From a virus (taxonomy: Duplodnaviria; Caudoviricetes): DNA of 64,000 bases. Both the position numbers and the translations under genes were made by a program. The stretch lies in IMG/VR virus record IMGVR_UViG_3300010355_000588; one strand, written 5' to 3'. Of this stretch, positions 2,094 through 64,000 are shown piece by piece; position 1 is the stretch's first letter; every line of letters starts with the position of its first letter. Under the pieces are notes generated by a model that ran no database searches, was not told where the DNA came from, and was given only the letters and a program-made list of their open reading frames with translations.

Positions 2094-2575
2094 GCAACAA
2101 GTTTGACGCTACTCTATTAGACCAACTGATTGACAATACGCTATTCCAAGAAGGCGAAATAATTGAAGAAGAACCTAAAGTCACAGTAGAACCACCTAGA
2201 CCAGAAAAGAATGCTCTGGATGGATTGAACACTCTGGAGGGCGTATATACTCAGATGGCTGAGTTGGCCAAGACAGGCAATGAACTCCTTGAGACAGCCA
2301 AATATTCTCTCGAGTCTCAGCCAGACAATGCCGAAGCCATTGCCGGGGTAGCTAGTCTACTGAATTCAGTCAAGGATACCCTAAAGGAATTCTCTAAGGT
2401 ATATCTAATGAAGGTAAGGTTCGATCAGCAAAAAGAACTTGAAAATCTAAAGACAGAAAACAAGAAAAAGCTGCTCGAGCACAAGATATCAGTAGATTCA
2501 GAATCAGGATCGAACACAACTAAAGATCTGATACCATATTCGCAAGAGCAGCTGATAAAACTTCTAAATGGTTAG
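2090..2575 (+). CDS. Terminase small subunit (gp16-like)
   Basis: 161 aa with helical core (MAELAKTGNELLETAK...AIAGVASLLNSVKDTLKE) and C-terminal SQEQLIKLL, like T4-type TerS. Confidence 0.65.
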   Translation: MSNKFDATLLDQLIDNTLFQEGEIIEEEPKVTVEPPRPEKNALDGLNTLEGVYTQMAELAKTGNELLETAKYSLESQPDNAEAIAGVASLLNSVKDTLKEFSKVYLMKVRFDQQKELENLKTENKKKLLEHKISVDSESGSNTTKDLIPYSQEQLIKLLNG

Positions 2576-3129
2576 AAATCTAACCCTTCGTTTTTCTTTG
2601 TACGCCTTTTCTTAGGTTTATCTTTAATAACTGCTTCTTTAAGAGGTTCCATAATTTCATTTAGTTTAGCTGCCATTTTCTTATTCAGTTCTTCATGGTA
2701 GTTTATCGCGTTCAAATTTCTACCATTTTCAAAGTTTCCATAAGAATATAACAGCTTGACCGCTTCTCTGAAGCATCCTTCGCACATTGCTGGAAGTGCA
2801 TCTTTCAATGGATATTTGGCACCATGTTTTTCTAGTTCGACTTCTGGATTTTTATCTAAGAAAGATAACACCTCATCCATCTTCTCAATGGCTTTTACAG
2901 GATCCACCATGCCACTATCAAGCAATTCCATTTTCTTGACAAGGGCGTTAAGTTTCTTATTCATTTGCTCATCTTCATCATCACGAATATCAATGGTTAG
3001 CTTTAGATTGAGCTTTCTTCCATTATATGGTGAGTCAACCTGTAGTTGTAACGCCTTAGAATCAGTGATGAGAGGATTGCCCGTCTCCATCACTTTTCCA
3101 CACATGTTGCAGATTTTTTGAAGACTCAT
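2572..3129 (-). CDS. Hypothetical protein with a split Zn-ribbon (CxxC...CxxC)
   Basis: CNMC near the N-terminus and CEGC later. Confidence 0.6.
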   Translation of the reverse strand: MSLQKICNMCGKVMETGNPLITDSKALQLQVDSPYNGRKLNLKLTIDIRDDEDEQMNKKLNALVKKMELLDSGMVDPVKAIEKMDEVLSFLDKNPEVELEKHGAKYPLKDALPAMCEGCFREAVKLLYSYGNFENGRNLNAINYHEELNKKMAAKLNEIMEPLKEAVIKDKPKKRRTKKNEGLDF

Positions 3130-3153
3130 GGCAATATTCCTTTCGTTGTATGA

Positions 3154-3927
3154 TTATTTATCTAGAACCTGAGTCTTCAGAAGGCCCCTGATTTCTTGAA
3201 CATATTTCGAGATTTCTTCCCGATTTACCTTATATTTCTTGGAAATGGTGGCAACAGGCAAACCATCTACATGGGCACGGAATACTGCCACTTTGCGTTT
3301 TCCACCGACTTTAGATTCTAGACCACTAAGAACATTATCGATTTTGGAGAAGATTTCTTTATAATAGATCTTGTCTTGGGTGTCTTCAGCTGAGTGTTCG
3401 AGCTGAAGCAAATCGCCAAAGGTGGTAGATGAGTCTTCAGAACTGACTGGAGTTTCCATAGACGTAACGGTGAACATGTTGCTCAGGGTAGTCTTGGCAC
3501 AGCGTTCTCCGAGCTTCGAGTGTTTGGCAAGCTCGTCATTGGAGGGGGTATATCCATGTTGTTCAATCCATGCATTCTTTTCTTCGTTGAGCGTCCGGAT
3601 CTTTTCATATTGGTTGACCGGAAGACGGACAGTGCTGCGATGGTTCTTGATGTAGCGTTGGATACGGCCCATGACATTGTAACGAGCGATAGTGATGAAC
3701 TTATGGCCGAGACTTGGATCGAATTGTTCGGCAGCCATTGTAAGTCCAAGAAGACCTTCTTGAAGCAGATCCTCGAATTCAGCGACGCCATAAGATCCAG
3801 CATATTTCCGAACCATCATCATAGCGAACTTCATGTTGTGTTCCACTAGTTCGTCACGAGTGGCCACCTTTTCTTGTTCACGGGTAAGCGGCGCCTTATA
3901 CTTTGTACTAGACAGATTGAAACTCAT
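3154..3927 (-). CDS. Sigma-70 family RNA polymerase sigma factor
   Basis: Region 2 (LVEHNMKFA...EDLLQEGLLGLTMAAEQFDPSLGHKFITIA), VRLP, region 3 (GYTPSNDELA, SMETPV), C-terminal HTH. Confidence 0.9.
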   Translation of the reverse strand: MSFNLSSTKYKAPLTREQEKVATRDELVEHNMKFAMMMVRKYAGSYGVAEFEDLLQEGLLGLTMAAEQFDPSLGHKFITIARYNVMGRIQRYIKNHRSTVRLPVNQYEKIRTLNEEKNAWIEQHGYTPSNDELAKHSKLGERCAKTTLSNMFTVTSMETPVSSEDSSTTFGDLLQLEHSAEDTQDKIYYKEIFSKIDNVLSGLESKVGGKRKVAVFRAHVDGLPVATISKKYKVNREEISKYVQEIRGLLKTQVLDK

Positions 3928-3942
3928 ATTGGTACTCCTTAA

Positions 3943-4146
3943 TTAGCAGTTTTCTTTAACGTAGGTGAGAATTTCTTCAAGGCGCTCGTTTTCCAGACGG
4001 CGCTCATGAATACGTTTTTCGAGCTTTTCTTTCCTTGGACCAGCATAATCGGTGTTGTTTGAGATTTCTTTGTCCAGAATATAGTCATTCTTGCTGATTC
4101 GAGTCATCAGGTGTTCGAGCAACATGTCTTTGATTCGTGAGTCCAT
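3943..4146 (-). CDS. Small early hypothetical protein
   Basis: ORF with AGGAG RBS, in an early operon. Confidence 0.6.
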   Translation of the reverse strand: MDSRIKDMLLEHLMTRISKNDYILDKEISNNTDYAGPRKEKLEKRIHERRLENERLEEILTYVKENC

Positions 4147-4163
4147 TGGTGTCTCCTTTGGTT

Positions 4164-4379
4164 TCAGCCTTCGAGCAAGTCGAAGAGGTAGTCGGGTTCG
4201 AGTCCGAAGTGGTCAGCGAGAATAGCTTCTGCCTGTTCGTAACCGTCATAGACATCGCCATTTCCGTCGTTCAGAATAGCATTGAGATCTTCACGTGCAA
4301 TGTCGAATGCTTCATTAGCAGCTTCGAGCGACATTCCATCACGTTCCATTAACACTTCAATAATAGAGTTTAAGCGCAT
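4164..4379 (-). CDS. Small acidic early protein
   Basis: AGGAG RBS; LMERDG...FGLEPDY pattern seen in phage proteins. Confidence 0.65.
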   Translation of the reverse strand: MRLNSIIEVLMERDGMSLEAANEAFDIAREDLNAILNDGNGDVYDGYEQAEAILADHFGLEPDYLFDLLEG

Positions 4380-4403
4380 CGTCTGGATCTCCTTATATTA
4401 GTT

Positions 4404-4637
4404 TTAGTCGTTGAGAATATAGATCATTTCGGTTGGAATGGCGGATCGATGAGGCATTGAGAAAAAGAAACCCGCATCGTTGCGTTCGATATGTAGATGA
4501 CCACACACCGGACATTCGTACAGATCGGCAGAATACGCCCAATCTGGATTTTCATTAGGTTGTACGTAAATACCATTCTTCTTACAGCGATAATGAACGA
4601 GACACTTTCCACAAACATGTTCGAGTTTCATTGTCAA
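4404..4637 (-). CDS. Small Zn-ribbon protein
   Basis: CGKC...ADLYECPVCG; directly downstream of an early promoter. Confidence 0.65.
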   Translation of the reverse strand: MTMKLEHVCGKCLVHYRCKKNGIYVQPNENPDWAYSADLYECPVCGHLHIERNDAGFFFSMPHRSAIPTEMIYILND

Positions 4638-4670
4638 TCTCCTTTAGTTGTTTAGCACGTTTAGCATTTT

Positions 4671-4710
4671 CAGTATAGTATATAGTACAACAAGTATTCG
4701 GTTTTGTCAA
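4671..4710 (-). promoter_or_regulatory. Early sigma70-type promoter, repeated element
   Basis: TTGACA-N17-TACTAT-ATACTATACTG on the minus strand; about 13 copies in the window. Confidence 0.8.
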
Positions 4711-4738
4711 TAGGTTATTGAAAAATTATCGAAAACCT

Positions 4739-4936
4739 TTATTTGGTGAGGTGAGCGCCGAGGTTGATTCCAGCGATAGCTTTTCCATCGACGTTGAAGA
4801 AAGCGACGATTCCAGGTTCGTCGTCAAAGACGTTGAGTTCGGCATGCTTCTTGAGGAGTTCTTTGAGATCGCTGAGAAAGCTATCAATGATTTGTTTTTG
4901 CTGTTCGACGGTGGTGACAGTGGTGAAAGTGTTCAT
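4739..4936 (-). CDS. Small early hypothetical protein
   Basis: AGGAG RBS; lies between two early promoters. Confidence 0.6.
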   Translation of the reverse strand: MNTFTTVTTVEQQKQIIDSFLSDLKELLKKHAELNVFDDEPGIVAFFNVDGKAIAGINLGAHLTK

Positions 4937-4967
4937 GATTATCTCTCCTTATTTCATTTACGTATTT

Positions 4968-5012
4968 TGGTATAGTATACAGTACAATGAAAAGGGCGGT
5001 TTGTCAACCGCC
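4968..5012 (-). promoter_or_regulatory. Early promoter with an inverted repeat over the -35
   Basis: TTGACA...TACTGTATACTATAC; GGGCGGTT-tgtc-AACCGCCC palindrome. Confidence 0.7.
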
Positions 5013-5051
5013 CCAGAGGAAAAAATCAAATATATTTTGAACAGAAGAAAT

Positions 5052-5390
5052 TTACTTCATCTTACCTTCTGCTTCCGCCTCTTTTTCCATTTTATCCAAT
5101 CTTGTGTAGTAATCCGGGATCTCAGCAAGATGATCCATGGCGATCTTCTTAGCCAGTGCTTCTTCTAACTGAGGGTTTACTCCCTTAGTAACGTGTTCCA
5201 TCTCGACACGGATTCCCATAGCTAACTCTTTTGGATCTACGTTTATTGGTTCGGCGGCTTCGTTCGATAGTCCGCCTTGTACCAACACTTTGAATATGTC
5301 GTTCACTCCAGGTATAGTAGAAGAAGTTGTCATCACTTCATATGGATGAGCCATCTCGAGTAGCTTGCTGATTCGTTTTTCAAATTTCAT
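5052..5390 (-). CDS. DUF5661-like protein with a putative capsid-targeting N-terminus
   Basis: ELAMGIRVEMEH...IAMDHLAEIPDYYTRL motif; begins MKFEKRISKLLE. Confidence 0.7.
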   Translation of the reverse strand: MKFEKRISKLLEMAHPYEVMTTSSTIPGVNDIFKVLVQGGLSNEAAEPINVDPKELAMGIRVEMEHVTKGVNPQLEEALAKKIAMDHLAEIPDYYTRLDKMEKEAEAEGKMK

Positions 5391-5425
5391 GGAAGTATCC
5401 TTTAAATATTGCCTTTAGCATATGA

Positions 5426-5908
5426 TTATTTATCTGCGGACATCTTAGGCACGCCAGCTGGAAATATTTCTTTCTCAGTGAGTATGATGAATTTAGCACC
5501 TTTAGCTTCAGCGAACTTGGAGGCAGCATTCCACTTGGCGGTATTTCTAATGTACGTCATTGCTTCTTCGTAGTACCGTTTGTCTGACTTTCTCCCCTTA
5601 ACCGGCATTATGGTCTCTTTGTGGGGTTTGACTTCGCAGTATATCTTGCTGATCTTTCCAGTCTTGTCCTTTACAGTAAAGGACAGATCGATAAAATATC
5701 TATGGGTGGTTCCGGCGCGCGATGGATCCACATATTCTACCACTGTCGATTCCGATCCCCATTGGAGGATGGCGGGATTAAGGTCCATATATCTAAAGCA
5801 TTGCAATTCCCAGGCCGAGCGGAAATAAATTTTTTGTAAGCACCCTATATACTTTTCCTTATTTCTAGGAACGAACTTGCCCTGCTTATAGCCATAACCC
5901 TTTTTCAT
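5426..5908 (-). CDS. Head completion nuclease (gp4-like, TnsA-type PD-(D/E)xK)
   Basis: YKQGKFVPRNKEKY, FRSAWE, WGSE, HRYFID, EVKP, NTAKW, FIILTE. Confidence 0.9.
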   Translation of the reverse strand: MKKGYGYKQGKFVPRNKEKYIGCLQKIYFRSAWELQCFRYMDLNPAILQWGSESTVVEYVDPSRAGTTHRYFIDLSFTVKDKTGKISKIYCEVKPHKETIMPVKGRKSDKRYYEEAMTYIRNTAKWNAASKFAEAKGAKFIILTEKEIFPAGVPKMSADK

Positions 5909-6977
5909 AATCTTCCAGAAGTTGTTCTTTTGTTATCCAGCATTTAGCTCGCTTTTTGATATTAACTGAACATTCTAACATCTGTAAATTAGCAACTGAC
6001 GCTATAATTTCAGCTGGTATCTTCTGCTTAAATCCTTCAGCAATAGAAAAAATATGATCTAGATGATAACTATTTATTCTTCTATACAGATGGTTTGGGT
6101 TAATAATGTGTTTGTATTTCTCATAATTTATTTCAGTTAACATACTAACTTGTTTATAGTAATCATATCTTTCTATATCTTCTTGAGTTAGCTCTTTAAA
6201 TGGCTTTCTCTTTTTTAGCCAAGTTAATTTCTTTTTCTGATAAATTTTGTCTCTTTCTTTATCCTCAATATTTTCCCACCAATTTTGGCATTTTGTGTGT
6301 AATTTTTTAATAAATTCTTCCTTTTCAACTGGATTTAGTTTGTTCATCCAACTAAATTTATTGCTTCTTTCTTCTTTTGACATTTTTCCTATTTGTTCAT
6401 TTATCGTATTTTTTGATTTTGTGAATATTTCGCTTTTCTCTTCATCAGTTCTGTTCTTCCATACTTCAGTCTGGCCGTTTTTGGTTTTTTCTATAAATGC
6501 TGAATATCTATCTTCGTCGTGTTTTAATGTTTTTCTGAAATCAGCAGCTGCACATGATCTACACCTAAAGGTATCTTGCTTCTTGATATACTTGGCCTCT
6601 TCAGAAGATATGATATTGAAGGTCTTCTCTTTTTTGCAGTCTATACAATGCAACGTTATATCTATTCTAGGCAACATTTTAGCCTGGCTTCTACATTTGT
6701 TGGAACAGGTATCTGAATAACCAACTGTCAGACTAAAATACTTTCTATTCTTCTTCTGGCATATTGGACACTTTTTGTATTCTATGGCTACGTCATTTAA
6801 AAAGCAGTATAGACGTTCGCTATATGAAATATCTCCGAACTGTTCAGTGCTTTTTATTATATAGTTGAAAATAGCAGGGTGTTTGGATTTAGTAAAATTC
6901 TTAAATCCTTGGGTGTTGAAATTCATTTTCTCGAGAGTGGTTCTTACGAAATTTTTGAGAACTTCTTTGCGTAGCAT
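5886..6977 (-). CDS. Putative HNH homing endonuclease
   Basis: AT-rich; CxxC Zn motifs; C-terminal YHLDHIFSI...NLQMLECSVNIKK; has its own late promoter. Confidence 0.7.
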   Translation of the reverse strand: MLRKEVLKNFVRTTLEKMNFNTQGFKNFTKSKHPAIFNYIIKSTEQFGDISYSERLYCFLNDVAIEYKKCPICQKKNRKYFSLTVGYSDTCSNKCRSQAKMLPRIDITLHCIDCKKEKTFNIISSEEAKYIKKQDTFRCRSCAAADFRKTLKHDEDRYSAFIEKTKNGQTEVWKNRTDEEKSEIFTKSKNTINEQIGKMSKEERSNKFSWMNKLNPVEKEEFIKKLHTKCQNWWENIEDKERDKIYQKKKLTWLKKRKPFKELTQEDIERYDYYKQVSMLTEINYEKYKHIINPNHLYRRINSYHLDHIFSIAEGFKQKIPAEIIASVANLQMLECSVNIKKRAKCWITKEQLLEDYEKGLWL

Positions 6978-7006
6978 GATGGTATTCTTTCTTATGTGGT
7001 TGAAAG

Positions 7007-7014
7007 TATTTATA
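7007..7014 (-). promoter_or_regulatory. T4-type late promoter TATAAATA
   Basis: Exact motif 30 nt upstream of the HNH gene. Confidence 0.65.
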
Positions 7015-7024
7015 TAAGAAAGAT

Positions 7025-7050
7025 AAAAAAGGGAAGCATTGCGCTTCCCT
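7025..7050 (-). terminator. Intrinsic terminator
   Basis: AGGGAAGC-gcaat-GCTTCCCT followed by a T-run. Confidence 0.8.
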
Positions 7051-7085
7051 ACTTCCGAATTACCACATAAGGAAGATAATATTAT

Positions 7086-7430
7086 TTATTTCTTAGCTCC
7101 AATCAGTTCATCGCGAAGTATCTTGCCTAGCCTTTCGTTTTTGTTCTTGACGTCGGCTTTGGTAAAGGAGGTAGAATGTTTCTGGTTGAGATATTTTAGG
7201 GTAGCTTCGATTTCCTTGTCGTCGATGTCTGGATCTTTACTAACTGCTCTGGTAAGAAAACTTGCAGTAGAAGAAAATGCTTGATCCTTATATCTAGCCA
7301 TCGGCTCGCCCATGAGAGCAGCAAGAATTAGAATATTAGACAAAAAGTTACTTAGCTTTCCCTCTTCTAATTCGACAGTTTGGGCAGGTTCGCTTTCTAG
7401 AAGGCTTCTTACTTTTTGTTCGAACTTCAT
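7086..7430 (-). CDS. Putative internal head protein (MKF...LLE family)
   Basis: Probable start ATG 7430, MKFEQKVRSLLESE, with AAGGA RBS. Confidence 0.65.
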   Translation of the reverse strand: MKFEQKVRSLLESEPAQTVELEEGKLSNFLSNILILAALMGEPMARYKDQAFSSTASFLTRAVSKDPDIDDKEIEATLKYLNQKHSTSFTKADVKNKNERLGKILRDELIGAKK

Positions 7431-42453: not shown

Positions 42454-43194
42454 TCAACACTTAATTAATTCAGCAACATTCACGCCATTATTCCGGTCTT
42501 TTTCTGTCAGTTCACATTCGTCGAGATTGCCAGAAAGTCCAGTCATATCGCCACGGATTCCAGTGACGTCGCCACGGATTTTAGTCACATCGCCACGGAT
42601 TCCGGTCACATTGCCACGGATTCCGGTCACATCGCCACGGATTTCAGTCACGTCACCGTAGATTCCAGACATATCGCCACGGATTCCAGACACATCGCCA
42701 CAAATTTTAGTCACATCGCCACAGATTACAGACACATAACCACGGATTCCAGACACATCGCCACGGATTCCAGACACATCGCCACCGATTTCGGTCACAT
42801 CGCCACCGATTTCGGTCACATCGCCACGGATTTCAGTCACGTCACCGTAGATTCCAGACATATCGCCACAGATTTCAGTTACGTCGCCACTGATTTCAGT
42901 CACATCGCCACGGATTCCGGTCACATTGCCACGGATTCCAGACACATCGCCACGGATTTCAGTCACATCGCCACAGATTACAGACACATAACCACGGATT
43001 CCAGACACATCGCCACGGATTCCAGACACATCGCCACGGATTCCAGACACATCGCCACGGATTCCAGATACATCGCCACAGATTTCAGTCACGTCACCGT
43101 AGATTCCAGACATATCGCCACAGATTCCAGAAGCATTTCCAGTAATCTTCATAGAATTCTGTTCGAGTTTTTTAATCATCTTTTTCATTTTCAA
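42454..43194 (-). CDS. 7-residue-repeat solenoid protein, paralog 2, 30 repeats
   Basis: IRGDVSG-type repeats; promoter at 43211-43250. Confidence 0.8.
   Translation of the reverse strand: MKMKKMIKKLEQNSMKITGNASGICGDMSGIYGDVTEICGDVSGIRGDVSGIRGDVSGIRGDVSGIRGYVSVICGDVTEIRGDVSGIRGNVTGIRGDVTEISGDVTEICGDMSGIYGDVTEIRGDVTEIGGDVTEIGGDVSGIRGDVSGIRGYVSVICGDVTKICGDVSGIRGDMSGIYGDVTEIRGDVTGIRGNVTGIRGDVTKIRGDVTGIRGDMTGLSGNLDECELTEKDRNNGVNVAELIKC
42520..43146. repeat. 21-bp tandem repeat array (coding VNTR)
   Basis: Units such as cacatcgccacggattccaga, many identical. Confidence 0.9.
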
Positions 43195-43270: not shown

Positions 43271-44089
43271 CTATTTTATTTTTATTTCTTCTATCCAATC
43301 AGTGCTTGTATCAATACCCACAGAAGCGTCTTCAGTGGATTCTATATGTTCTACCAACTTTTTTAGATCAACAGTTGCTTCCTTTATAGTCGCTTCTACT
43401 TGTTTATCACTGACTACACAGCAATCAGCTGGTATCGGTCGCTTGCTATTCTTCTTCATCCGTCTATATAGAGAATACAGATGTTTATTCTTCTCATCTT
43501 TCTGGTGTTCCACCAACCAATGGGTTCCTACCTCACTAGTGCTCAGATGCTTGAAAAGAGAGTGAGCGAAGTCGTCGTTCCAATATAGATCCACTATTTC
43601 TTCCTTGGTGTTCCACTCGAATGGAAAGGTTATTTCAACTTCCTTTTTTCTGACAGAGGTTTCAGCGAATCTAGTCAAATTTTTCCACATGTCTAAAAAA
43701 GCATCCTTGAAGTGCCAGAAGCAATCGTCTTTGACATATCCAAAAGCTACTTCGAAGAATTGCGATTTATTTCGATACATTTCATTCATTACATAGTAGT
43801 TGACCATATAGCACCACATCTGTGGTTGAGTTAGCACATGTCCAACGTTTCCATATTCTAAATCTAAGCTACCCACTCGACGTTCATAACCGAGCTTTTC
43901 AAAGCCATATTTTTCGTGTATCTTCGCTCGGAGTGCCTGTCTAGCTATTTGTTCAGCTGCATATTGAAGTGGGTTGTTCTTCAACTCGACGTAAATGGGG
44001 TGTACTACATAGTCAGTGTTCTTTAGATAGTGGAGAATGAGGGAGGTGCTATCGAACCCACCAGACCATGGAATAAAGACGTTGCTCAT
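43271..44089 (-). CDS. QueC-like PP-loop ATPase
   Basis: PWSGGFDST, FGYVKDD, FPFEWNTKEEI; lacks the C-terminal Zn-binding cysteines of QueC. Confidence 0.65.
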   Translation of the reverse strand: MSNVFIPWSGGFDSTSLILHYLKNTDYVVHPIYVELKNNPLQYAAEQIARQALRAKIHEKYGFEKLGYERRVGSLDLEYGNVGHVLTQPQMWCYMVNYYVMNEMYRNKSQFFEVAFGYVKDDCFWHFKDAFLDMWKNLTRFAETSVRKKEVEITFPFEWNTKEEIVDLYWNDDFAHSLFKHLSTSEVGTHWLVEHQKDEKNKHLYSLYRRMKKNSKRPIPADCCVVSDKQVEATIKEATVDLKKLVEHIESTEDASVGIDTSTDWIEEIKIK

Positions 44090-47606: not shown

Positions 47607-48593
47607 TTAGACTGTAAAGGTTAGATCCAAATATTTTGTAGCATATTTTTTGGTGGTGCTGATTCTGACATTGGTTATCTTAGGACTGAAGGCAAGCTCC
47701 ATAAGCTCTCTTACCATTGGGTGGGCTGCCTTAGATTCTCGAAGACTCCTGATATATTTCCACTGGTCATCAGTTGCTGTCATGATTAGTTCGGTCTTAA
47801 GACCATTTGGCAAGACACTGCGCGCCATTTGCGGACTTAACCCTTGGTTCAATAAGCACTCATATGCTTGGGCTGACAAAAGCATCGATTTCTTAATAGT
47901 GTCAGAATCATATTCGATGAAGGTTATTTCTTCTCCATAATTGCAGTATCTAGTGGATTCTTGGCTAAAGGAAGCAAGCCGGTGTCTGACAAGCTCGTGA
48001 GAAATGCCACGGTCGGTGACGAAGCGAAACGTGGAATATTTGGTGTCTTGCTCGAAGACATACGAATGGCCGGCAATCATGCCAGCGTGAGTCTTCATTG
48101 CTGTAGTAGAAAAAGAAAGCAATCTATCGAACTCAGGAAAGATCCTACATAATTCTCTGACTACATAATTGATTTCTATCTTTTTGGCAATAGAACCAAA
48201 AGTCGGATCGTTCCATGTTTGGTTTAGTAGAATTGCCCAAGATCTAAGATTTCCAGATATCTCCAATGCTTTCTCATCCTGTACAGTGACCTCCCTATAT
48301 TCCATTCCTTCGAAGATCAGCATGTATTTTTCAAACTCGCTGAGATATGAAGAACGGGGCGTCTCTTTACAGAATAAGCGCCTCATACTGATCCTAACAT
48401 GTTCCAATACGCTATGATGGCCATTCTTGACGATCTTCTCATAGAATGCCAATGCAGACCCTTCTTTGATCTTGTCTTCAGACTTGTAGCACACCCTTCC
48501 ACATATCTCGATCTTCTTGAGGATGTCTTTTTCGTCGATGCGCTCAGCAGACTGAGGAACAAAGCGCACTGTCAAGCTTCTAGATTTATTCAT
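47607..48593 (-). CDS. thyX: Flavin-dependent thymidylate synthase
   Basis: GHHSVLEH, RGISHELVRHRLASFSQESTRY, ARSVLP, AHP. Confidence 0.95.
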   Translation of the reverse strand: MNKSRSLTVRFVPQSAERIDEKDILKKIEICGRVCYKSEDKIKEGSALAFYEKIVKNGHHSVLEHVRISMRRLFCKETPRSSYLSEFEKYMLIFEGMEYREVTVQDEKALEISGNLRSWAILLNQTWNDPTFGSIAKKIEINYVVRELCRIFPEFDRLLSFSTTAMKTHAGMIAGHSYVFEQDTKYSTFRFVTDRGISHELVRHRLASFSQESTRYCNYGEEITFIEYDSDTIKKSMLLSAQAYECLLNQGLSPQMARSVLPNGLKTELIMTATDDQWKYIRSLRESKAAHPMVRELMELAFSPKITNVRISTTKKYATKYLDLTFTV

Positions 48594-55590: not shown

Positions 55591-56155
55591 TCAGATCGAA
55601 AATAAATCGAAATTTTTCTGCTTCAGATACTCCTTACGCTTGTCTGCCTTGGAACTCGAAAGCCAGTCATCGACAATCTGGACGTCAGTAGCTTCGTCGA
55701 AGTCTATCTTGACTACGAATTTGTCCATGCCGACCTTCTTTACCAGATCGCGTAACTCCTCAGTCTTCCAGGTGCCAAGACCCTTGTAGTAATGTTGTTT
55801 ATATTTAGATACATCGTTCTTGGCGACGAAGGCCTGGTAGTCTGGAAGATTCATGAAATGGTGGACGATCTTTCCTTTAGAATCTTTCAGCGTGACAATC
55901 GGGGTCTGAAGCTTGTAGATGTTGTTCTTCAGGATTTCTTTGAAGTGCTTGTAAAAAAGACCGATGTAAAGACCAGTGATATGTGAACCAGTTACTCCCC
56001 AACTAACCATCACCATCAGCATCTGTAGCGATGATGATTTTGTCAAAGTTGCTGGTTCTATCTACCTGGTTGCAGTTCATGGTTCTTCTTACATTAGTCT
56101 GTTGTTGGTAGGCGTTCATATCTACCTTAGACTTGTTGATCTTTTTGAACTTCAT
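55591..56155 (-). CDS. Topoisomerase II small subunit (gp60-like) with a 19-nt coding gap; join(56155..56006, 55986..55591), 181 aa
   Basis: MKFKKINKSKVDM...NVRR...IIIATDADGDG, TAG, then SHITGL...TPIV...YYKGLGT...RKEYL in another frame. Confidence 0.85.
55987..56008 (-). other. Putative ribosomal bypass element
   Basis: GGT TAG TTGGGGAGTAACT GGT: matched codons, stop, hairpin, GGAG. Confidence 0.75.
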
Positions 56156-57725: not shown

Positions 57726-58349
57726 TCAGACCTGCATCAATTTGACACAAGCCTTCTCGATGTCCATAGTCATGTAGACATCGAAGAGGGCGTCATGGGC
57801 GTCCGCCTTGGAGATATCAGTGTCAATCAGACCCATCATGCGAAGCGTATTGTATACAGTGGTTAGCTTGAAGTTGTTCATCTTTGTTCGGATAGAGGCC
57901 ATCGCATAAGAAGCCAACACCATAATATCCATCGTGTTGGACCAGAAGAAGTTGCCAAAGAGGAACTTCTGGTTGGCAAGCTTCTCGGTGAGCATATTCT
58001 GGTTTTCCTGGATGAAGTTGACGATGAAGTCCTTATCAAAGTGTGCGTTGTAGGCACAGAAGAACATCTTGTCCTGGGCGTCGAAGGGCTTGCAATGTCT
58101 GACGAGCAACTTCATAAATTCCATAAAGGCTTGTTCGTATGTCATATCCCTGGATTGGACGTCTTCCTCGGTCAACCCTGAGATCTTCAATGCTCGAAGG
58201 TCAATCAGCTTCTTGGTAGACGGAGAGAACTTCAGATCAAGGGTCTCGATGGTTTTGCCATCTTCAACCAGGATCGTACAAAGCTGATGGATGGAATGGT
58301 TCTTAGGATCCAATCCAGTGGTTTCGACGTCTACATAAAGCTTCTTCAT
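57726..58349 (-). CDS. DEDDh 3'-5' exonuclease (DnaQ-like)
   Basis: DVETTG, AYNAHFD, AHDALFD. Confidence 0.9.
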   Translation of the reverse strand: MKKLYVDVETTGLDPKNHSIHQLCTILVEDGKTIETLDLKFSPSTKKLIDLRALKISGLTEEDVQSRDMTYEQAFMEFMKLLVRHCKPFDAQDKMFFCAYNAHFDKDFIVNFIQENQNMLTEKLANQKFLFGNFFWSNTMDIMVLASYAMASIRTKMNNFKLTTVYNTLRMMGLIDTDISKADAHDALFDVYMTMDIEKACVKLMQV

Positions 58350-58418
58350 GTTTCAATATCCTTCAGTATTTTCAGTATAATATATAGTACAACAAGAACT
58401 CAGTTTTGTCAATAGGAT

Positions 58419-59087
58419 TTACCCAATTAATTCAGTAATATTCACGCCATTCTTACGGTCTTTCTCAGTTAGCCCACATTCATCGAGATTGCCTTGGATT
58501 CCAGTCATATCGCCATAAATTCCAGTCACATCGCCACGAATTCCATATATATGACCATGAATTCTAGTCACATCGCCACGAATTCCATATATATGACCAT
58601 AAATTCCAGTCACATCGCCACGAATTCCATATATATGACCATGAATTCTAGTCACATCGCCACGGATTCTAGACACATTGCCACGGATTCTAGACACATT
58701 GCCAAAGATTCCAGATATATCGCCGCGGATTCCAGTCACATCGCCGCAGATTCCAGTCACATCGCCGCAGATTCCGGATACATTGCCAGAGATTCCAGTC
58801 ACATTGCCTTGCAGACTATCAACATTGCCAAAAATTCCAGACGCGTTGCCAGAAATTTTGGAAACATTACCAATAATGCTAGACACGTTACCACGAAGCT
58901 CCGACACATCACCGCGAATGCCAGTCACATCGCCAGATATTCCGGTCACATTACCATAAATATTTGATACATCACCAGAAATTTCAGCAGCATCACCATA
59001 AATTTTTTCTATGTTGCCAGTGATATTTTTTGCATTCGTCAATTCTTTTTTGATTTCAATTTTCTTCATCATCTTTTTCATCGTCAA
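58419..59087 (-). CDS. 7-residue-repeat solenoid protein, paralog 3, 26 repeats
   Basis: Same repeat and C-cap; flanked by promoters 58373-58412 and 59112-59151. Confidence 0.8.
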   Translation of the reverse strand: MTMKKMMKKIEIKKELTNAKNITGNIEKIYGDAAEISGDVSNIYGNVTGISGDVTGIRGDVSELRGNVSSIIGNVSKISGNASGIFGNVDSLQGNVTGISGNVSGICGDVTGICGDVTGIRGDISGIFGNVSRIRGNVSRIRGDVTRIHGHIYGIRGDVTGIYGHIYGIRGDVTRIHGHIYGIRGDVTGIYGDMTGIQGNLDECGLTEKDRKNGVNITELIG

Positions 59088-59161
59088 TCTCCTTTGATTA
59101 TTTGGTATTTTTAGTATAATATATAGTACAACAGGTATTCGGTTTTGTCAACAGGTAAAAC

Positions 59162-59187
59162 AAAAAAGGAGGAAAATAAATTCCTCC
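59162..59187 (-). terminator. Intrinsic terminator ending the modification operon
   Basis: GGAGGAA-N6-TTCCTCC-TTTTTT. Confidence 0.7.
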
Positions 59188-59216
59188 AATTTCGTAGTGC
59201 AGTGGACACGTTTGGA

Positions 59217-60071
59217 TCAGTTCTTTTCTACCAGCCACTTGACGAACTTGTTCTTGTTGAGATACTTGCTTTCGAGAAGCGCCTCTTTTACGTCTGGTCT
59301 GATTGTAGAGGTATCGCCAACGAACATTGATTCAGTCAGCTTCGGCGTAGAATTCTTGGCGAATGGGAACTTGAGCATGTTGCCAAACGTCTCATAGTCC
59401 TTTTCATAGATATGGTACGAGACAGAATGGTGGATATATTCGCCAAGTTCGAGATCTGGATAGTTGTCGAGAAGCTGAAGCCTCATCTGCTGCATGAGAA
59501 GCGTGAAGAATGGAACATCATATACGATCCCGAAGAAAGCATCTGAACTGCGCATGAACATGGTCAGATTGAGCTTGTCATTCCGGATGTTGAAGACCCC
59601 GTTCAGCGTACAGACAAAGTCCTTATTGTCTTGGAACGAGTGGTATGGTTTGCTGAAGCGAACGATAGCCTGGCGAGTGTCCTCATCTTTTCTGAGCGCG
59701 TCGAGAGCCCATTCCCATTCCGTATAGCCAAATTCATTCTTTTCCTTGAAGATCGTATATCCATAGGCTGACGAGAGCTTTCCAGTTTCCTTGTCAGCCA
59801 ACTTGTTCCAGAAATTGGAATATTGGCTGATGTACTTGAGATCGTTCCGCCCGAGGAAATACCACTTGAGTTCGCCTTTGAGATATTTGTCGCTAGGGCT
59901 TCGATTGTCGTTCGAGTAAAGATTGCTATATGGATTGGTGAGTTGGAGCACCATATTCGATACTTCTTTCACCTCCATTCCTCTCGGAGATACTGTCGCC
60001 TTTGAATCCATTACAGCTTCAATGGACTGCTTATAGATTTCAGCAAACGTCGAACCTTTGATAAGTTGCAT
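59217..60071 (-). CDS. Thymidylate-synthase-fold enzyme, probable dCMP hydroxymethyltransferase
   Basis: SPRG, AYG, DTRQA, DFVCT (catalytic Cys), MRSSDAFFGIVYD (Asp in place of the TS Asn), SYHIYE. Confidence 0.8.
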   Translation of the reverse strand: MQLIKGSTFAEIYKQSIEAVMDSKATVSPRGMEVKEVSNMVLQLTNPYSNLYSNDNRSPSDKYLKGELKWYFLGRNDLKYISQYSNFWNKLADKETGKLSSAYGYTIFKEKNEFGYTEWEWALDALRKDEDTRQAIVRFSKPYHSFQDNKDFVCTLNGVFNIRNDKLNLTMFMRSSDAFFGIVYDVPFFTLLMQQMRLQLLDNYPDLELGEYIHHSVSYHIYEKDYETFGNMLKFPFAKNSTPKLTESMFVGDTSTIRPDVKEALLESKYLNKNKFVKWLVEKN

Positions 60072-60112
60072 AGATATACCTTTATATCAGTTAATGATTC
60101 GTTTATGATATG

Positions 60113-60817
60113 TTAGATCGAACGGATGAAGTCGGCTACCTTCTTGACACATTCGACTGGATCTGGATCATGGGTGGTGTCGATAGACATGTTCTTGAAG
60201 ATAGACTTCGAGATATAATACGAGAAGGCGTTCTGGAGCTGGGCGATGTCCTGCACCGAAGGAGCACGTTCGGTCTTTCTGGTTTCTTTGAACCGACGAG
60301 CAACCACCACTGGATCGCATTTCACCTGTACAATAATGACAGGAAGATCGGCATTTTTCCGTTCGAGAGTTCCTAGATAAGTAGGCACTCGATTGCGAAG
60401 CGTCGGAGAATAGATGAACTCGCCGATGTGGGCCCTGTCGAAGATGAAGCTATTTCCAACGTTAGTAGCTGCTCGAATCATGTCGAACATGAGGTGGAAT
60501 TGGCCAACCTGAAAGCCATAGCGCTCATCGGTAGTATCGCCGATTGGAAATTGAAAGTGGTGGTACATCAATGGATATCCCAAATGCTTTCTAAGCGCTT
60601 CGATAAAGGTTGTCTTTCCAGAAGCATCTACTCCTTCGATGATGAGCGAATATTGCTTCATGGGTTTTTCTTGAGTAGCTTCTGGAACCGTTTCCTGAAC
60701 AACTACGTCTTGAATTGGAACTTCTTTGACGATAGGATCAACTTCTTTCTGACGTCTGACATATTTGCGCTTCTTGGGTTCTTCTACAGGTTTTTCTTCT
60801 TTTTTGCGACGAGCCAT
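60113..60817 (-). CDS. dNMP kinase (thymidylate kinase-like)
   Basis: IEGVDASGKTT, IFDRAHIGEFIYS. Confidence 0.85.
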   Translation of the reverse strand: MARRKKEEKPVEEPKKRKYVRRQKEVDPIVKEVPIQDVVVQETVPEATQEKPMKQYSLIIEGVDASGKTTFIEALRKHLGYPLMYHHFQFPIGDTTDERYGFQVGQFHLMFDMIRAATNVGNSFIFDRAHIGEFIYSPTLRNRVPTYLGTLERKNADLPVIIVQVKCDPVVVARRFKETRKTERAPSVQDIAQLQNAFSYYISKSIFKNMSIDTTHDPDPVECVKKVADFIRSI

Positions 60818-60854
60818 TAGCGTTTCTCCTAATTTGTTGGTTTAGTACAATATG

Positions 60855-61439
60855 TCATTTGTTCAGCCATTGGACTGTTGAGATTTCGCCAAATTTCGAA
60901 TTATTTTTACGGTCTTGCCACTCGACAGTGATCCCATGGTCGGCCATTAGTTCGACGTCGAGATATTCGAGGCTGCCAGTTCCGGATAAATATGTGTCGC
61001 CATTAACCATTTTGATCAGTTGGATCAGCCGTTCAGTCTTTGTCTTTTCAGTAGGATAATCGAACGCGATCTCGGTAGATATGCCAAGCATCTCCATAGT
61101 TTTCATGATAATGGCGATATTGCTAACAGCTAAAAATTCGCCAACGCATTCGTCATATATAGACAGCGCCTTTCCATCCTTGCCAAGAGAGCATTTGATC
61201 TTATTCCAGTTTCTAGCTGGATCTACGTATTTCTTATCGATGATCTTGTCTTCCAGATGCCCACGAGATACCGGCATGGTGTACCACTTGCCCAAGTGGT
61301 TGAAACGTCGCTGATAGCCTTCGTACCAAAACTGGCACTGAGTTAGAATGACGAAGACGTCTACTGATGCCATCTTCTCATAATATGGCATCCAAGGCAC
61401 GAAATTTGGCTGATGGATAGCTACTTTAGTTTTAGACAT
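60855..61439 (-). CDS. WbqC-like family protein
   Basis: AIHQPNFVPWMPYYEKM..DVFVIL..QF, TMPV, TERLI, YLSG.G...YLD. Confidence 0.88.
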   Translation of the reverse strand: MSKTKVAIHQPNFVPWMPYYEKMASVDVFVILTQCQFWYEGYQRRFNHLGKWYTMPVSRGHLEDKIIDKKYVDPARNWNKIKCSLGKDGKALSIYDECVGEFLAVSNIAIIMKTMEMLGISTEIAFDYPTEKTKTERLIQLIKMVNGDTYLSGTGSLEYLDVELMADHGITVEWQDRKNNSKFGEISTVQWLNK

Positions 61440-61447
61440 GCCGAACC

Positions 61448-62134
61448 TCAGATTAGTTTGCTATTGGATAGAACGACAAGGCAATCAGCCATCATGTTAT
61501 GCTCAATGACAACGTTCGGAGTTACGCTGAGAGCAGAGTCAAGAACGAGCGAAGGAGAGAAATATTCGAAGGTCGGTTCACGCTTCAAACACCAGGCTGA
61601 TGGAAAATTGCAAAATACCATATTAGACATCTTTATCATTTCGTTGAAGAAAGTAGTTAGAAATTTAGGATGCCAGGCTGGAAAACCACGATTGTTGAAT
61701 AGACCAGAGACTATCGTACAGTCGAAATTGCCATATGTTTCTTGAAATATTGAGAAATCTAAAGCATCGTCGAGAAAAAATGCTATGTCGTTTACATTGC
61801 CATATGTCTTATTGGCATATCTGATGAATGCTGGATTGTTGTCAATGCCAACATATTTAGAAAAACCATCTTTATGTATTTCACAAAAGCCACCAAACCC
61901 ACAGCCAATTTCAAATATAGAAAAAGACTCAAAATTTTTGCAATATTTAGCCATCTGATCGTAACGGACCACCGCTGAAACAATAGACTTCCAGTGAAGC
62001 AACTGCCATTTGTCTGGATGGTTTTCAATGTCTTCGACCGTAAGCGATTCTGTCTTATAGAATTCCTTATCAATCTTGGCGTTGATGTTTTGAGCATTAT
62101 CCATAATGGCCGTAATTGGATAGAATACTGGCAT
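61448..62134 (-). CDS. Class I SAM-dependent methyltransferase
   Basis: IFEIGCGFG, YVGID, SGLFN. Confidence 0.85.
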   Translation of the reverse strand: MPVFYPITAIMDNAQNINAKIDKEFYKTESLTVEDIENHPDKWQLLHWKSIVSAVVRYDQMAKYCKNFESFSIFEIGCGFGGFCEIHKDGFSKYVGIDNNPAFIRYANKTYGNVNDIAFFLDDALDFSIFQETYGNFDCTIVSGLFNNRGFPAWHPKFLTTFFNEMIKMSNMVFCNFPSAWCLKREPTFEYFSPSLVLDSALSVTPNVVIEHNMMADCLVVLSNSKLI

Positions 62135-62145
62135 TGTCCATCTCC

Positions 62146-62793
62146 TTAGATAGTATAATTAATATGTTTGATCTGATAAGCTTCAGCATATTCAGCATAA
62201 CAGAATTGTCCATGATAGGCAGCAGTGGCCTTGATCTTCTTGACGTAGAAATTGTCGTTCTTCTTACACTGAGACGGAAAGCATTCCAACATATGGTCAG
62301 TCTTGTAGTTAAGCATTTCTTCAGAAAGTGGCATGTACATGTTTGGAATGAAGTCGATGCTAGTGGCTGCTTCGTAATAAATTAACGAACACTTTCTACT
62401 TGCGTCAGTAGCTGCTTCTCCAACAGTACGATGATCGATATGAGTATCGAGAGGAAATGGAGCAAAGACGAACTTAATGTCATGTCTAGAAATAGTATCC
62501 TCAATCTCATCTCGAAGTTCGTTATAGTGTTCGTTTAGCGTTCTAACAACAAATGGATAGGTAGGGCGTTCCAACCAAAAGTTTAGATTGAAATGCGCCT
62601 TAAGTATACGTTCAGATTCTTTTTGTTCGTGCCAACGTGGATCGTCGTCGATAGTATGGCAGATATTTAGAATATGAACTGCCTTTCCCTTAGAGGTGAC
62701 GTCCTTAGCAATTTGGACAAAGGCTCCGAGACAAGAAATTTCCATGTCGTCAGAGTGAGTAGATACAAATAGTGTCTTGTCCGTAATGGTCAT
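62146..62793 (-). CDS. PIG-L/LmbE family N-deacetylase
   Basis: STHSDDMEISC, DTHIDH, F.SQ, YAEAY. Confidence 0.88.
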   Translation of the reverse strand: MTITDKTLFVSTHSDDMEISCLGAFVQIAKDVTSKGKAVHILNICHTIDDDPRWHEQKESERILKAHFNLNFWLERPTYPFVVRTLNEHYNELRDEIEDTISRHDIKFVFAPFPLDTHIDHRTVGEAATDASRKCSLIYYEAATSIDFIPNMYMPLSEEMLNYKTDHMLECFPSQCKKNDNFYVKKIKATAAYHGQFCYAEYAEAYQIKHINYTI

Positions 62794-63989
62794 CTAATCC
62801 ATTCCTTTCCAGTCAGTCGTTTGTAGTCAGCATGAAAAATGTCGCAAATAAACGTGCCATCATAATATTCTGGTTTTAGGCGATTGTTTTGTTCTATTAG
62901 CAATTTGACATAGAAGTCATGATCAGTCATTACTTTATGTATTTTTTCGCGAAAATTCATGGGGTTAACTCGAAGAAAGTGGTCGAGTGGAAAGACATGG
63001 CCCTGGGTATCGTATTCTTTAGCCATGAAGGCGATGCACCCTGGATCGTCGATGGATCTACCGTTCATTGTCTCACACCATTTAGTAGTAGCCCATTTCT
63101 CAGTAATAAGAAGCGATATTTTAGTAGCCTTCATTAGTTCGGCCAACTCGTTCATGTCCTTAGGTCCTTTGAAGCGAGGATCAGCTTCTAGAATTTCGTC
63201 ACGCCACTTTCCATAAATCTCGACGTTCTTGATGCAGTTAGGAGTATCCCACTTGCCAATATATTTCATCAGTGTTGGATATCTATCGGGATTGCCATTG
63301 GAGTCTTCCTGGTTCAGAACGATTCTAAACTGATTGAGCTTCTTCTTGGCTAACTCTGGAATCTGTTCGATGGGGGTCTTCTGTTGGTAGTTCAAGAAGA
63401 GAGTCTCCAACCCTACATATTTCGCAGGTATCTTCGTCCTGACAAGCTTTCTTGGCTTGGCATCCTCGAAGCATCTAATAGTCTCAGCCCAATCTATGCA
63501 AGGCGAATCGAACTGCGTTAGAAGCAACGACGGTAGATTAGCCTGATATAATTCCTTCTCTCTGGTCATTAGATATCTAGAGTCGTTCGAATAATATGAC
63601 TTAGGTACCTCTACATGGTCGTTCAGAACATATAGAATAGGAGCTGTCATACGCTTGTTCTGAGCGAGTACCTTCTGACATTTCTTTCCTTTAGCACTGG
63701 CCATAGTGATGAAGTTGGGCATATTAATATCCCCAGTGGGCCCTGCTAGAATGACAAAATAATCGATCTTGGCCTTCTTGACTTGTTCGTTAAGTAGCTT
63801 GAAATATTCCCAGCTCTCGCAAGTAGCTTCATTGCACGTCAAACCCTCAGTCAAATCGAAGACGTTGGAATATTTGAACTGGGCCTTGATCTCGTCAGAA
63901 CAAGTAGACAGATCGTTTCGGCCGAAGATGAAGATTTTGTCCTTCGGATGATGGTTGGCGAGTAGATTGACCATCTTCGGAGCATTCAA
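62790..63989 (-). CDS. GT-B glycosyltransferase, possibly DNA beta-glucosyltransferase-like; 5' end may lie outside the window
   Basis: NDSRY, VEIYGKW, WATTKWCE, YDTQ...FLRV; context beside the hydroxymethylase. Confidence 0.5.
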   Translation of the reverse strand: MNAPKMVNLLANHHPKDKIFIFGRNDLSTCSDEIKAQFKYSNVFDLTEGLTCNEATCESWEYFKLLNEQVKKAKIDYFVILAGPTGDINMPNFITMASAKGKKCQKVLAQNKRMTAPILYVLNDHVEVPKSYYSNDSRYLMTREKELYQANLPSLLLTQFDSPCIDWAETIRCFEDAKPRKLVRTKIPAKYVGLETLFLNYQQKTPIEQIPELAKKKLNQFRIVLNQEDSNGNPDRYPTLMKYIGKWDTPNCIKNVEIYGKWRDEILEADPRFKGPKDMNELAELMKATKISLLITEKWATTKWCETMNGRSIDDPGCIAFMAKEYDTQGHVFPLDHFLRVNPMNFREKIHKVMTDHDFYVKLLIEQNNRLKPEYYDGTFICDIFHADYKRLTGKEWIR

Positions 63990-64000
63990 ATCTCCGCCTG

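Follow-up and report, generated by a model that had tools for sequence, protein, structure and literature searches.

A Candidate Cytosine-Hypermodification Operon with a Sugar-Tailoring Module in a T4-like Phage

A Putative Cytosine-Modification Operon

The metagenomic virus record IMGVR_UViG_3300010355_000588 (Duplodnaviria; Caudoviricetes), of which we analyzed a stretch of 64,000 nt that we refer to as the window, carries at its right-hand end a block of six co-oriented open reading frames (ORFs) on the minus strand (59217-64000) that is best explained as a cytosine-modification operon of a T4-like phage of ~164 kb. In the order of transcription, the block encodes a glycosyltransferase (GT), a PIG-L deacetylase, an S-adenosylmethionine (SAM) methyltransferase, a WbqC-family protein, a kinase, and an enzyme with the thymidylate synthase (TS) fold. 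In our full model, in which we infer every chemical step, 5-hydroxymethylcytosine (hmC) would be produced and glycosylated, and the sugar would then be deacetylated, acylated, and methylated on the DNA; we consider the chance that this model is correct to be about even. What we show directly comprises the identities of the genes, their linkages, the folds, and the diagnostic residues. The core of the block is a member of the T4-type strategy of hmC glycosylation, and the three genes for sugar tailoring are inserted into it.

All six ORFs that a preliminary description, made from the letters of the window alone, had assigned to the block are present, and five of them have support from Pfam (the TS-fold enzyme, the thymidylate-kinase-like kinase, whose score lies below the cut-off, WbqC, the class I SAM methyltransferase, and PIG-L); PHROGs concur with Pfam on the TS-fold enzyme and the kinase. 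The spacing within the block ranges from a 4-nt overlap, in which the start of the PIG-L gene overlaps the stop of the GT gene, to a gap of 41 nt, and the tailoring genes are spaced by gaps of 8-41 nt. Directly 3' of the TS stop codon is a terminator-like hairpin with a T-run (59187-59168, minus strand) that consists of a 7-bp stem with four GC pairs followed by TTTTTTGTTT. It is the sole minus-strand terminator-like site across 58300-64000, with none inside the block, and is the likely end of the operon.

In the other direction the operon extends past the window. Contigs that carry the complete GT gene are ~164 kb long and were assembled from ENA (ERZ27257428 k141_664329) and JGI (3300009780 Ga0116156_10000015) metagenome records, and we collected the locus of this phage including the flank beyond the window end (L001), which adds ~10 kb for a total of 74 kb. 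In this phage, our scans for a dCTPase, a sugar nucleotidyltransferase, and a TET-type oxidase cover these 74 kb of the 164-kb contig. Directly upstream of the GT gene, L001 contains genes for a family-B DNA polymerase (PolB), a C5-cytosine-methyltransferase-like (C5MT-like) protein, and a HAD phosphatase, the latter two of which were missed in the preliminary description, and the transcription order is PolB, C5MT-like, HAD phosphatase, GT, PIG-L, methyltransferase, WbqC, kinase, and TS. Two dCMP-deaminase-like genes and one dUTPase-like gene are located farther upstream. The corresponding gene order in T4 is 43 (polymerase), imm, 42 (dCMP hydroxymethylase), and beta-gt, and because the TS-fold gene and the GT gene described here are likewise just downstream of PolB, this neighborhood is equivalent to T4 43-42-beta-gt. 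Among the other products of the window are proteins of the gp32-like, clamp-loader, ligase, DnaB-like, RecA/UvsX-like, and topoisomerase II types, and the replication apparatus of the phage is, therefore, T4-like. When we compared the block by megablast with 50,697 phage records, none of them matched.

Predicted Supply of 5-Hydroxymethylcytosine

The last gene of the operon (59217-60071, minus strand) encodes a TS-fold enzyme of 284 aa (PF00303, E value 2e-19, 70 bits) that we strongly infer from its sequence to be a 5-hydroxymethyl-dCMP synthase of the gp42 type, that is, the counterpart of T4 dCMP hydroxymethylase (dCH). An Asp in place of the conserved TS Asn, which had been read in the preliminary description as the mark of a dCMP-specific enzyme, is indeed found at position N177 (residues 174-185, RSSDAFFGIVYD). 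The active site contains the motifs DFVC (Asp at L143 and Cys146), RSSD (D169 kept), and VYD (Asp at N177); in the alignment, FVC and VYD coincide with the Cys and Asp179 residues of T4 dCH and also match MilA. The replacement N177D is associated with cytosine specificity, an acidic residue at L143 with a hydroxymethyl product, and D169N with 5-hydroxy-dCMP synthases (Lee et al., PMC13326640); because D169 is kept in the enzyme described here, we rejected the possibility that it is a 5-hydroxy-dCMP synthase. The closest solved structures are the CMP hydroxymethylase MilA (E value 5e-17) and T4 dCMP hydroxymethylase (E value 2.6e-14), with thymidylate synthases behind them, and an hhalign comparison with T4 gp42 gave a probability of 99.95% and an E value of 3.6e-38 over 233 columns. 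The four diagnostic residues (Cys146, D169, and the Asp residues at positions L143 and N177) are kept in all five GT-linked TS homologs that we compared (the phage's own and those of four related loci). Synthesis of dTMP would be supplied separately by the flavin-dependent thymidylate synthase ThyX, whose gene is present at 47607-48593 (minus strand; PF02511, E value 1.9e-33), as had been reported in the preliminary description.

The gene next to that of the TS-fold enzyme (60113-60817, minus strand) encodes a P-loop kinase of 234 aa that we predict to phosphorylate hm-dCMP (PHROG 761, E value 1.3e-15). The protein has a P-loop (EGVDASGKTT), and what had earlier been designated a dNMP kinase can be called thymidylate-kinase-like only, with the match to PF02223 just under the cut-off and that to TIGR00041 far under it. 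A search for solved relatives returned none with an E value below 0.2, and the protein is 37.5% identical to the kinase encoded beside the TS gene in the related locus L004. It begins with a tail of 52 aa rich in Lys, Arg, and Glu (60662-60817, minus strand) that the L004 relative lacks and that may serve as a nucleic-acid or replisome tether. An AGGAG Shine-Dalgarno site is located 8 nt ahead of the ATG at 60817; we rejected the internal Met53 as the start because it has no Shine-Dalgarno site, whereas the one at the upstream ATG is strong.

A Glycosyltransferase Family Related to T4 Beta-Glucosyltransferase

The first gene of the block within the window (62790-64000, minus strand, running into the window edge) encodes a GT-B glycosyltransferase that the structure model relates to T4 beta-glucosyltransferase (BGT). 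The preliminary description had placed this ORF at 62790-63989; its stop end is correct, but the TTG at 63989 is not the start, as the ORF is open at the window end and the complete protein (P0003), which starts 64 nt past the window, has 424 aa. The protein has zero matches in Pfam, PHROG, and NCBIfam. We therefore rely on an AF2 model built from 16 homologs (pLDDT 86) for the comparison with BGT that had been suggested earlier. In a Foldseek search with this model the six best matches are all T4 BGT (top E value 3.5e-10), and upon VIA re-alignment BGT (1j39) is again the best match with a model-based Z score of 21.8 and a root mean square deviation (rmsd) of 3.8 over 317 residues, followed by BshA (Z 19.5), T4 alpha-glucosyltransferase (17.6), and the DNA glycosyltransferase of phage HY126 (17.3). 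A family profile aligned with T4 BGT by hhalign reached a probability of 84% and an E value of 7.5e-6 over the C-terminal 202 columns only. The modeled protein thus has a GT-B fold nearest to that of T4 BGT, and fold, remote homology, and synteny together suggest that it would glycosylate the hydroxymethyl group of hmC in DNA.

Relatives of this GT are encoded on at least 176 IMG/VR viral contigs. To take a census of their neighbors by tblastn we kept 80 GT loci (L015-L094), in which C5MT-like genes (77 loci), HAD phosphatase genes (65), dCMP deaminase genes (44), TS genes (41), and sugar nucleotidyltransferase genes (30) recur. Conservation of the neighborhood, which the preliminary description had named as a check, therefore holds for the association of the GT with TS, HAD, deaminase, and C5MT-like genes but not for the tailoring genes, as PIG-L, WbqC, and the SAM methyltransferase were found by tblastn in none of the 80 loci; the tailoring genes, therefore, appear as a lineage-specific insert in a conserved cytosine-glycosylation cassette. 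The related loci sit inside T4-like replication modules, and a typical one encodes PolB, TS, deaminase, a fusion of HAD with an APH kinase, a cytidylyltransferase-like protein, the GT, the C5MT-like protein, an exonuclease, and the gp45 clamp. In the phage described here the tailoring genes occupy the spot where these sister phages encode enzymes for the activation of the donor sugar, and no sugar nucleotidyltransferase was detected in the window and the adjoining 10 kb, which fits a host UDP-sugar as the donor. Cultured phages that carry the core cassette are Pseudoalteromonas phage vB_Psh_XG4, which encodes TS, HAD, a nucleotidyltransferase, the BGT-like GT, and the C5MT-like protein at 1-6600 of locus L098, and Enterococcus Denvervirus phages such as Planchet, in which the kinase, TS, dUTPase, HAD, nucleotidyltransferase, and GT are encoded at 2260-7209 of locus L095. 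In the literature searched we found no report on the DNA chemistry of XG4 and Planchet.

The Putative Tailoring Module

The PIG-L/LmbE protein is a putative zinc deacetylase of 215 aa (62146-62793, minus strand; PF02585, 37.7 bits with a cut-off of 28.2) in which the HxDD/HxDH motifs are intact, HSDD and HIDH aligning with AHADD and HPDH of the solved structure 2ixd. Its top NCBIfam match is BshB1 (TIGR04001, E value 1e-9), at 38.3 bits compared with a cut-off of 182.5. From its family and by analogy we predict that it de-N-acetylates an N-acetylglucosamine (GlcNAc) glycoside; in the characterized PIG-L enzymes MshB, BshB, PIG-L, and BtrD the substrate is GlcNAc that is already on its aglycone, and the enzyme acts straight after a GT-B enzyme. 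A word-index protein search returned only the query itself, whereas an exhaustive HMMER search identified three nearest relatives with 36-43% identity, each of which has WbqC encoded beside it; one of them belongs to a bacterial operon with a GT2, another to a 250-kb T4-like phage, and the third lies on a short contig. The closest of them is found in a bacterial metagenome-assembled genome (L099:9001-12179), in an operon with WbqC, GT2, and a membrane protein with an LPG_synthase_TM domain, which suggests that bacteria also use the PIG-L-WbqC pair, in their case to tailor a GlcNAc glycoside linked to a membrane.

The WbqC-family protein (194 aa; 60855-61439, minus strand) matches PF08889 with an E value of 2.3e-26 (93.4 bits, cut-off 21.3) and contains an invariant IHQP motif, and the nearest cluster in the Atlas is annotated "WbqC family protein" (TM 0.85). 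We aligned an AF2 model of it (pLDDT 91) exhaustively with 48,161 PDB representatives. The best match is BshC (4wbd_A; Z 10.9, rmsd 3.2, 188 of the 194 residues), followed by class I lysyl-tRNA synthetase (LysRS; 1irx, Z 10.4); the remaining chains score Z 7.7 or lower and include class I synthetases and HIGH-type nucleotidyltransferases. The model thus has a Rossmann-type HUP fold that superposes on BshC across the whole protein. BshC has been assigned to the addition of cysteine to glucosaminyl-malate, following BshA (a GT-B enzyme) and BshB (of the PIG-L family), and the WbqC-family protein is, accordingly, a predicted ATP-dependent ligase that would acylate the freed amine of the sugar. 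The conserved gene pair gives independent support to the prediction that PIG-L and WbqC act together. Taken together, the structural match of the WbqC model to BshC and the constant location of the nearest PIG-L relatives beside WbqC indicate that the block repeats the logic that BshA, BshB, BshC, and NmbA follow.

The third tailoring gene (61448-62134, minus strand) encodes a class I SAM methyltransferase of 228 aa (Methyltransf_25/11/12). Both its PDB and its Atlas neighbors are generic, those in the Atlas being class I methyltransferases of viruses and bacteria, its similarity to the sugar O-methyltransferase family NanM is weak and confined to the SAM-binding motif, and its similarity to the methyltransferases of Vibrio phage vB_VpS_PG28 and of locus L012 extends to the SAM motif only. 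PIG-L and WbqC together with a GT-B enzyme, and sometimes with a SAM methyltransferase, are also encoded by Ralstonia phage RP13 and by PG28, the latter of which additionally has a SAM methyltransferase and a ParB-like protein in its module. RP13 has been grouped with SP-15, YerA41, and Carin-5, whose DNA bears oligosaccharide-hypermodified thymidine (PMC12686479).

Proposed Pathway and Alternative Explanations

In the pathway that we propose, the TS-fold enzyme would convert dCMP to 5-hydroxymethyl-dCMP, which is the step with the strongest grounds, and the thymidylate-kinase-like kinase would phosphorylate this product; host enzymes would then form the triphosphate, and the family-B polymerase of the phage would incorporate hmC. 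ThyX and the products of the two dCMP-deaminase-like genes and the dUTPase-like gene would serve the supply of dTMP and possibly the exclusion of dC. The BGT-like GT would next attach a sugar to the hydroxymethyl group of hmC in DNA; because a PIG-L gene follows and genes for donor synthesis are absent, this sugar is most likely GlcNAc, taken from the UDP-GlcNAc pool of the host. PIG-L, judged by its family and by analogy, would strip off the N-acetyl group and bare a primary amine, the WbqC-like protein, judged by its fold and by the gene pair, would couple this amine with a carboxylate (that of an amino acid, most likely), and the SAM methyltransferase would methylate the product. The synthesis logic of N-methyl-bacillithiol and mycothiol would in this way have been moved onto DNA. 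The same order of N-acetyl-sugar addition, deacetylation, aminoacylation, and methylation had been put forward in the preliminary description; it gains from the match of WbqC to BshC and from the PIG-L/WbqC pairing, whereas the action of the tailoring enzymes on a DNA-bound sugar is presumed by analogy, and GlcNAc as the sugar, the kind of acyl group, and the atom that receives the methyl are likewise presumed. Analogy also suggests that the modification may protect the DNA from host nucleases, in keeping with the anti-restriction or anti-CRISPR role proposed earlier. A more specific version, in which every cytosine carries hmC-O-glucosamine with its amine aminoacylated by WbqC, as a small ligase with the BshC fold, and then methylated, is one that we put forward only tentatively and think rather doubtful.

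Several findings weigh against the full model. The nearest relatives of WbqC (40-50% identity) and PIG-L (36-43%) belong to glycan clusters of phages and bacteria that lack a TS gene, and the module is, therefore, not DNA-specific in itself; such clusters in phages have been interpreted as surface-polysaccharide systems (PMC7824862). The phage is known from metagenome contigs alone, and because the tailoring genes are found in none of the 80 related loci the six-gene combination is without comparative support. BGT leads BshA by merely ~2 Z units in the comparison with the GT model, and the kinase reaches 26.0 bits against the cut-off of 27 for Thymidylate_kin (PF02223). The similarity of WbqC to BshC is structural only, as a WbqC profile compared with PDB sequences gave no match to BshC or a synthetase and a Foldseek search of the PDB with the WbqC model gave nothing below an E value of 1e-3. 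We also know of no in vitro reconstitution of the ligase activity of BshC itself. The HAD phosphatase (EcbF/BcbF type, 164 aa; L001:9507-10001, overlapping the GT start; TIGR01689, E value 6e-29) occurs here without the sugar kinase and nucleotidyltransferase that are its partners in sister phages. Finally, the C5MT-like protein encoded just past the window end, upstream of the HAD gene (L001:8204-9478; PF00145), retains motifs I, IV (PPC), VI, VIII, and X and is hard to square with full replacement of C by hmC: given that the linked TS homologs all look like dCMP hydroxymethylases, a C5-methyltransferase would be left without substrate. In the more specific version given above, the protein might act on 5-substituted cytosine other than by methylating it. 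We hold the full model to about an even chance because of the relatives in glycan clusters, the single example, the slim lead of BGT, the structural-only link of WbqC, the C5MT-like partner, and the lone HAD phosphatase.

The same relatives in glycan clusters form an argument for a division of labor in which the TS-fold enzyme, the kinase, and the GT make a T4-style glycosyl-hmC, whereas PIG-L, WbqC, and the methyltransferase serve a non-DNA acceptor, such as a small molecule akin to bacillithiol, a glycan linked to lipid or on the cell surface, or one on a virion protein, and merely share the transcription unit. Those clusters are large and encode many GTs and methyltransferases as well as NeuB/KdsA-type proteins, one close relative is part of the bacterial operon with GT2 and the LPG_synthase_TM domain, and the enzyme set equals that of the N-methyl-bacillithiol pathway, whose BshA is the second structural match of the GT. 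However, the three genes are wedged between the BGT-like GT and the kinase/TS genes with the tight spacing described above, a second GT for another acceptor is not present in the block, and in no fewer than 80 loci the GT family is linked with genes of DNA metabolism. In addition, PIG-L scores far under the equivalog cut-off for BshB1, and PIG-L/WbqC/GT modules are also found in RP13, which belongs to a phage group with sugar-hypermodified thymidine. We regard a split function as unlikely.

It is somewhat more unlikely, in our view, that PIG-L, WbqC, and the methyltransferase, perhaps together with the HAD phosphatase, remodel a nucleotide sugar or sugar phosphate before its transfer to hmC in DNA. 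This explanation accords with the sister loci, in which genes adjoining that of the GT make the donor (HAD phosphatase, APH-type kinase, and cytidylyl- or nucleotidyltransferase), and donor-making genes are likewise present in RB69, DLP3, and HY126 (PMC13326640). The WbqC fold also resembles small HIGH-type nucleotidyltransferases such as TagD, PPAT, and Fom1 at Z ~7, and WbqC genes often come after genes for DegT aminotransferases, which act on NDP-sugars. Against this, BshC and LysRS align with the entire WbqC model and outscore the nucleotidyltransferases by ~3 Z units, a sugar-1-phosphate nucleotidyltransferase was not found within the 74 kb, and it is established that characterized PIG-L/LmbE enzymes deacetylate GlcNAc glycosides after transfer and do not act on UDP-GlcNAc.

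C5-methyltransferases can catalyze exchange reactions at 5hmC in vitro, and the C5MT-like gene is the most constant neighbor of the GT (77 of 80 loci). A different route to the modified base, in which hmC is partial or absent and the C5MT-like enzyme sets site-specific targets or works on 5-substituted cytosine, is nevertheless highly improbable, as no TET/JBP-type oxidase is among the precomputed Pfam hits of eight loci (L001-L008), all linked TS homologs have the dCMP-hydroxymethylase signature, the dCMP deaminase, dUTPase-like protein, and ThyX fit a T4-style rewiring of the nucleotide pool, and the Enterococcus relatives hold the cassette without a C5MT-like gene.

Significance

Whether a given restriction, CRISPR, or type IV system is able to cut a phage depends on the hypermodifications of its DNA, which have also been a source of tools for epigenetic sequencing. 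To our knowledge, the sugars so far measured on phage cytosines (glucose, arabinose, galactose, heptose, and N-acetylhexosamine [HexNAc]) are all neutral, and an amino sugar that is de-N-acetylated, acylated, and methylated would introduce charge, and chemistry of a new kind, into the major groove. What is new here is the cytosine (gp42-type) context, the BGT-like GT family with its C5MT-like partner, and the assignment of WbqC to the BshC fold. The WbqC family gains a testable function as a BshC-like amine ligase that follows a PIG-L deacetylase, and the BGT-related GT family, which is nearly always encoded beside a C5MT-like gene, proves to be widespread in environmental T4-like phages. If the more specific version of the model is true, it would represent the first aminoacylated amino sugar on DNA and the first assigned biochemical function for the WbqC family and, by extension, for the PIG-L-WbqC pair of many O-antigen and phage glycan clusters. 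In the literature that we searched on WbqC biochemistry and on the involvement of amino sugars or deacetylases in the modification of phage DNA we found no description of such chemistry, and no account of a DNA-bound sugar being deacetylated, acylated, or methylated.

Other Features of the Window and Its Flank

Four further observations concern genes outside the block. The topoisomerase II region at 55591-56155 (minus strand; L001:17826-18390) is split into a 50-aa ORF and a 143-aa TOPRIM_C ORF with a slight overlap. Between the two dCMP-deaminase-like genes is a gene for a pentapeptide-repeat protein of 178 aa (L001:4375-4911; PF00805, E value 5e-29) that could act as a DNA mimic against gyrase or a defense system. 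Two coiled-coil proteins (58419-59087 and 42454-43194, minus strand) have identical weak matches (DUF1664, LPP-like), and the copy adjoining the TS gene is 192 aa long in L001 and 220 aa long in L002, the two loci representing two metagenome assemblies. A protein of 272 aa (43271-44089, minus strand) has a weak match to QueC, a PP-loop ATPase, with an E value of 1.3e-4 that is just under the Pfam cut-off.

Comparison with Known Systems

The system described here is most readily compared with the glucosyl-hmC pathway of T4, with which it shares the four diagnostic TS residues and full-length homology to gp42, a GT whose best match is BGT, the location of both genes downstream of PolB, and the presence of a separate route to dTMP and a dCMP deaminase. 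Unlike T4, which uses the gp1 dNMP kinase, it has a thymidylate-kinase-like kinase; three tailoring genes are inserted, and a HAD phosphatase gene and a C5MT-like gene are attached. Identity between the GT and BGT is only ~14%, and the Pfam model does not recognize the GT; glucose is probably not the sugar, and a gp56-type dCTPase was not identified in the part of the contig that we scanned.

The clusters for arabinosyl-5-hydroxycytosine in RB69, DLP3, and HY126 and for hexosyl-5-hydroxycytosine in RL38JI (PMC13326640) are similar in their kinase/GT/TS layout and in having an AfhF-like HAD, AfhF being the component of the arabinosylation pathway that the HAD phosphatase resembles, and sister loci of the GT family carry a nucleotidyltransferase-kinase fusion as these clusters do. 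They differ in that their TS homologs have D169N and make 5-hydroxy-dCMP, whereas D169 is kept here, and in that they have no PIG-L, WbqC, or methyltransferase. Other phage GTs place hexose, HexNAc, or heptose on 5hmC, and HexNAc-hmC has been demonstrated (bioRxiv 10.1101/2023.12.21.572611); a search of the text of that report for "deacetyl" returned nothing, and no deacetylation or acylation of a sugar is reported there. C5-methyltransferase genes are also present in the MT/5mYOX (TET) clusters of that report (Pyle et al.), in which a methyltransferase and an oxidase form 5hmC once the DNA has been replicated, whereas here hmC would already arise at the stage of the nucleotide; no Tet_JBP domain near the methyltransferase or GT is among the precomputed Pfam hits of L001-L008.

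The modules of RP13, PG28, and the Stenotrophomonas phages DLP3 and DLP5 share with the block the PIG-L and WbqC pair, a GT-B enzyme, and often a SAM methyltransferase. Their GT is a GT4 (BshA-like) enzyme and not BGT-like, and their partners are ParB-like; in DLP3 and DLP5, for example, PIG-L, a methyltransferase, and a BshA-like GT have been described together with ParB (PMC7326821). RP13 has, instead of ParB, a distant TS homolog in which the residue at the N177 position is ambiguous in the alignment.

The tailoring steps themselves have their closest counterpart in the synthesis of bacillithiol and N-methyl-bacillithiol (BshA, BshB, BshC, and NmbA) and of mycothiol (MshA, MshB, and MshC). 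The four enzyme types are the same and follow an identical chemical order, in which a GT-B enzyme adds GlcNAc, a PIG-L enzyme deacetylates it, a Rossmann-type ligase with a class I synthetase-like fold places the acyl group on the amine, and a class I SAM methyltransferase completes the series; the one named NmbA N-methylates the cysteine of bacillithiol in Chlorobi and many Bacteroidota (bioRxiv 10.1101/2025.07.06.663066). The proteins are not orthologs of the bacillithiol enzymes, as the BshB1 score of PIG-L is below the cut-off and there is no sequence signal between WbqC and BshC. WbqC has 194 aa compared with ~540 aa in BshC, and the methyltransferase is not detectably NmbA-like. The most fundamental difference would lie in the acceptor, which in the thiol pathways is malate or inositol and which we propose to be hmC in DNA here.

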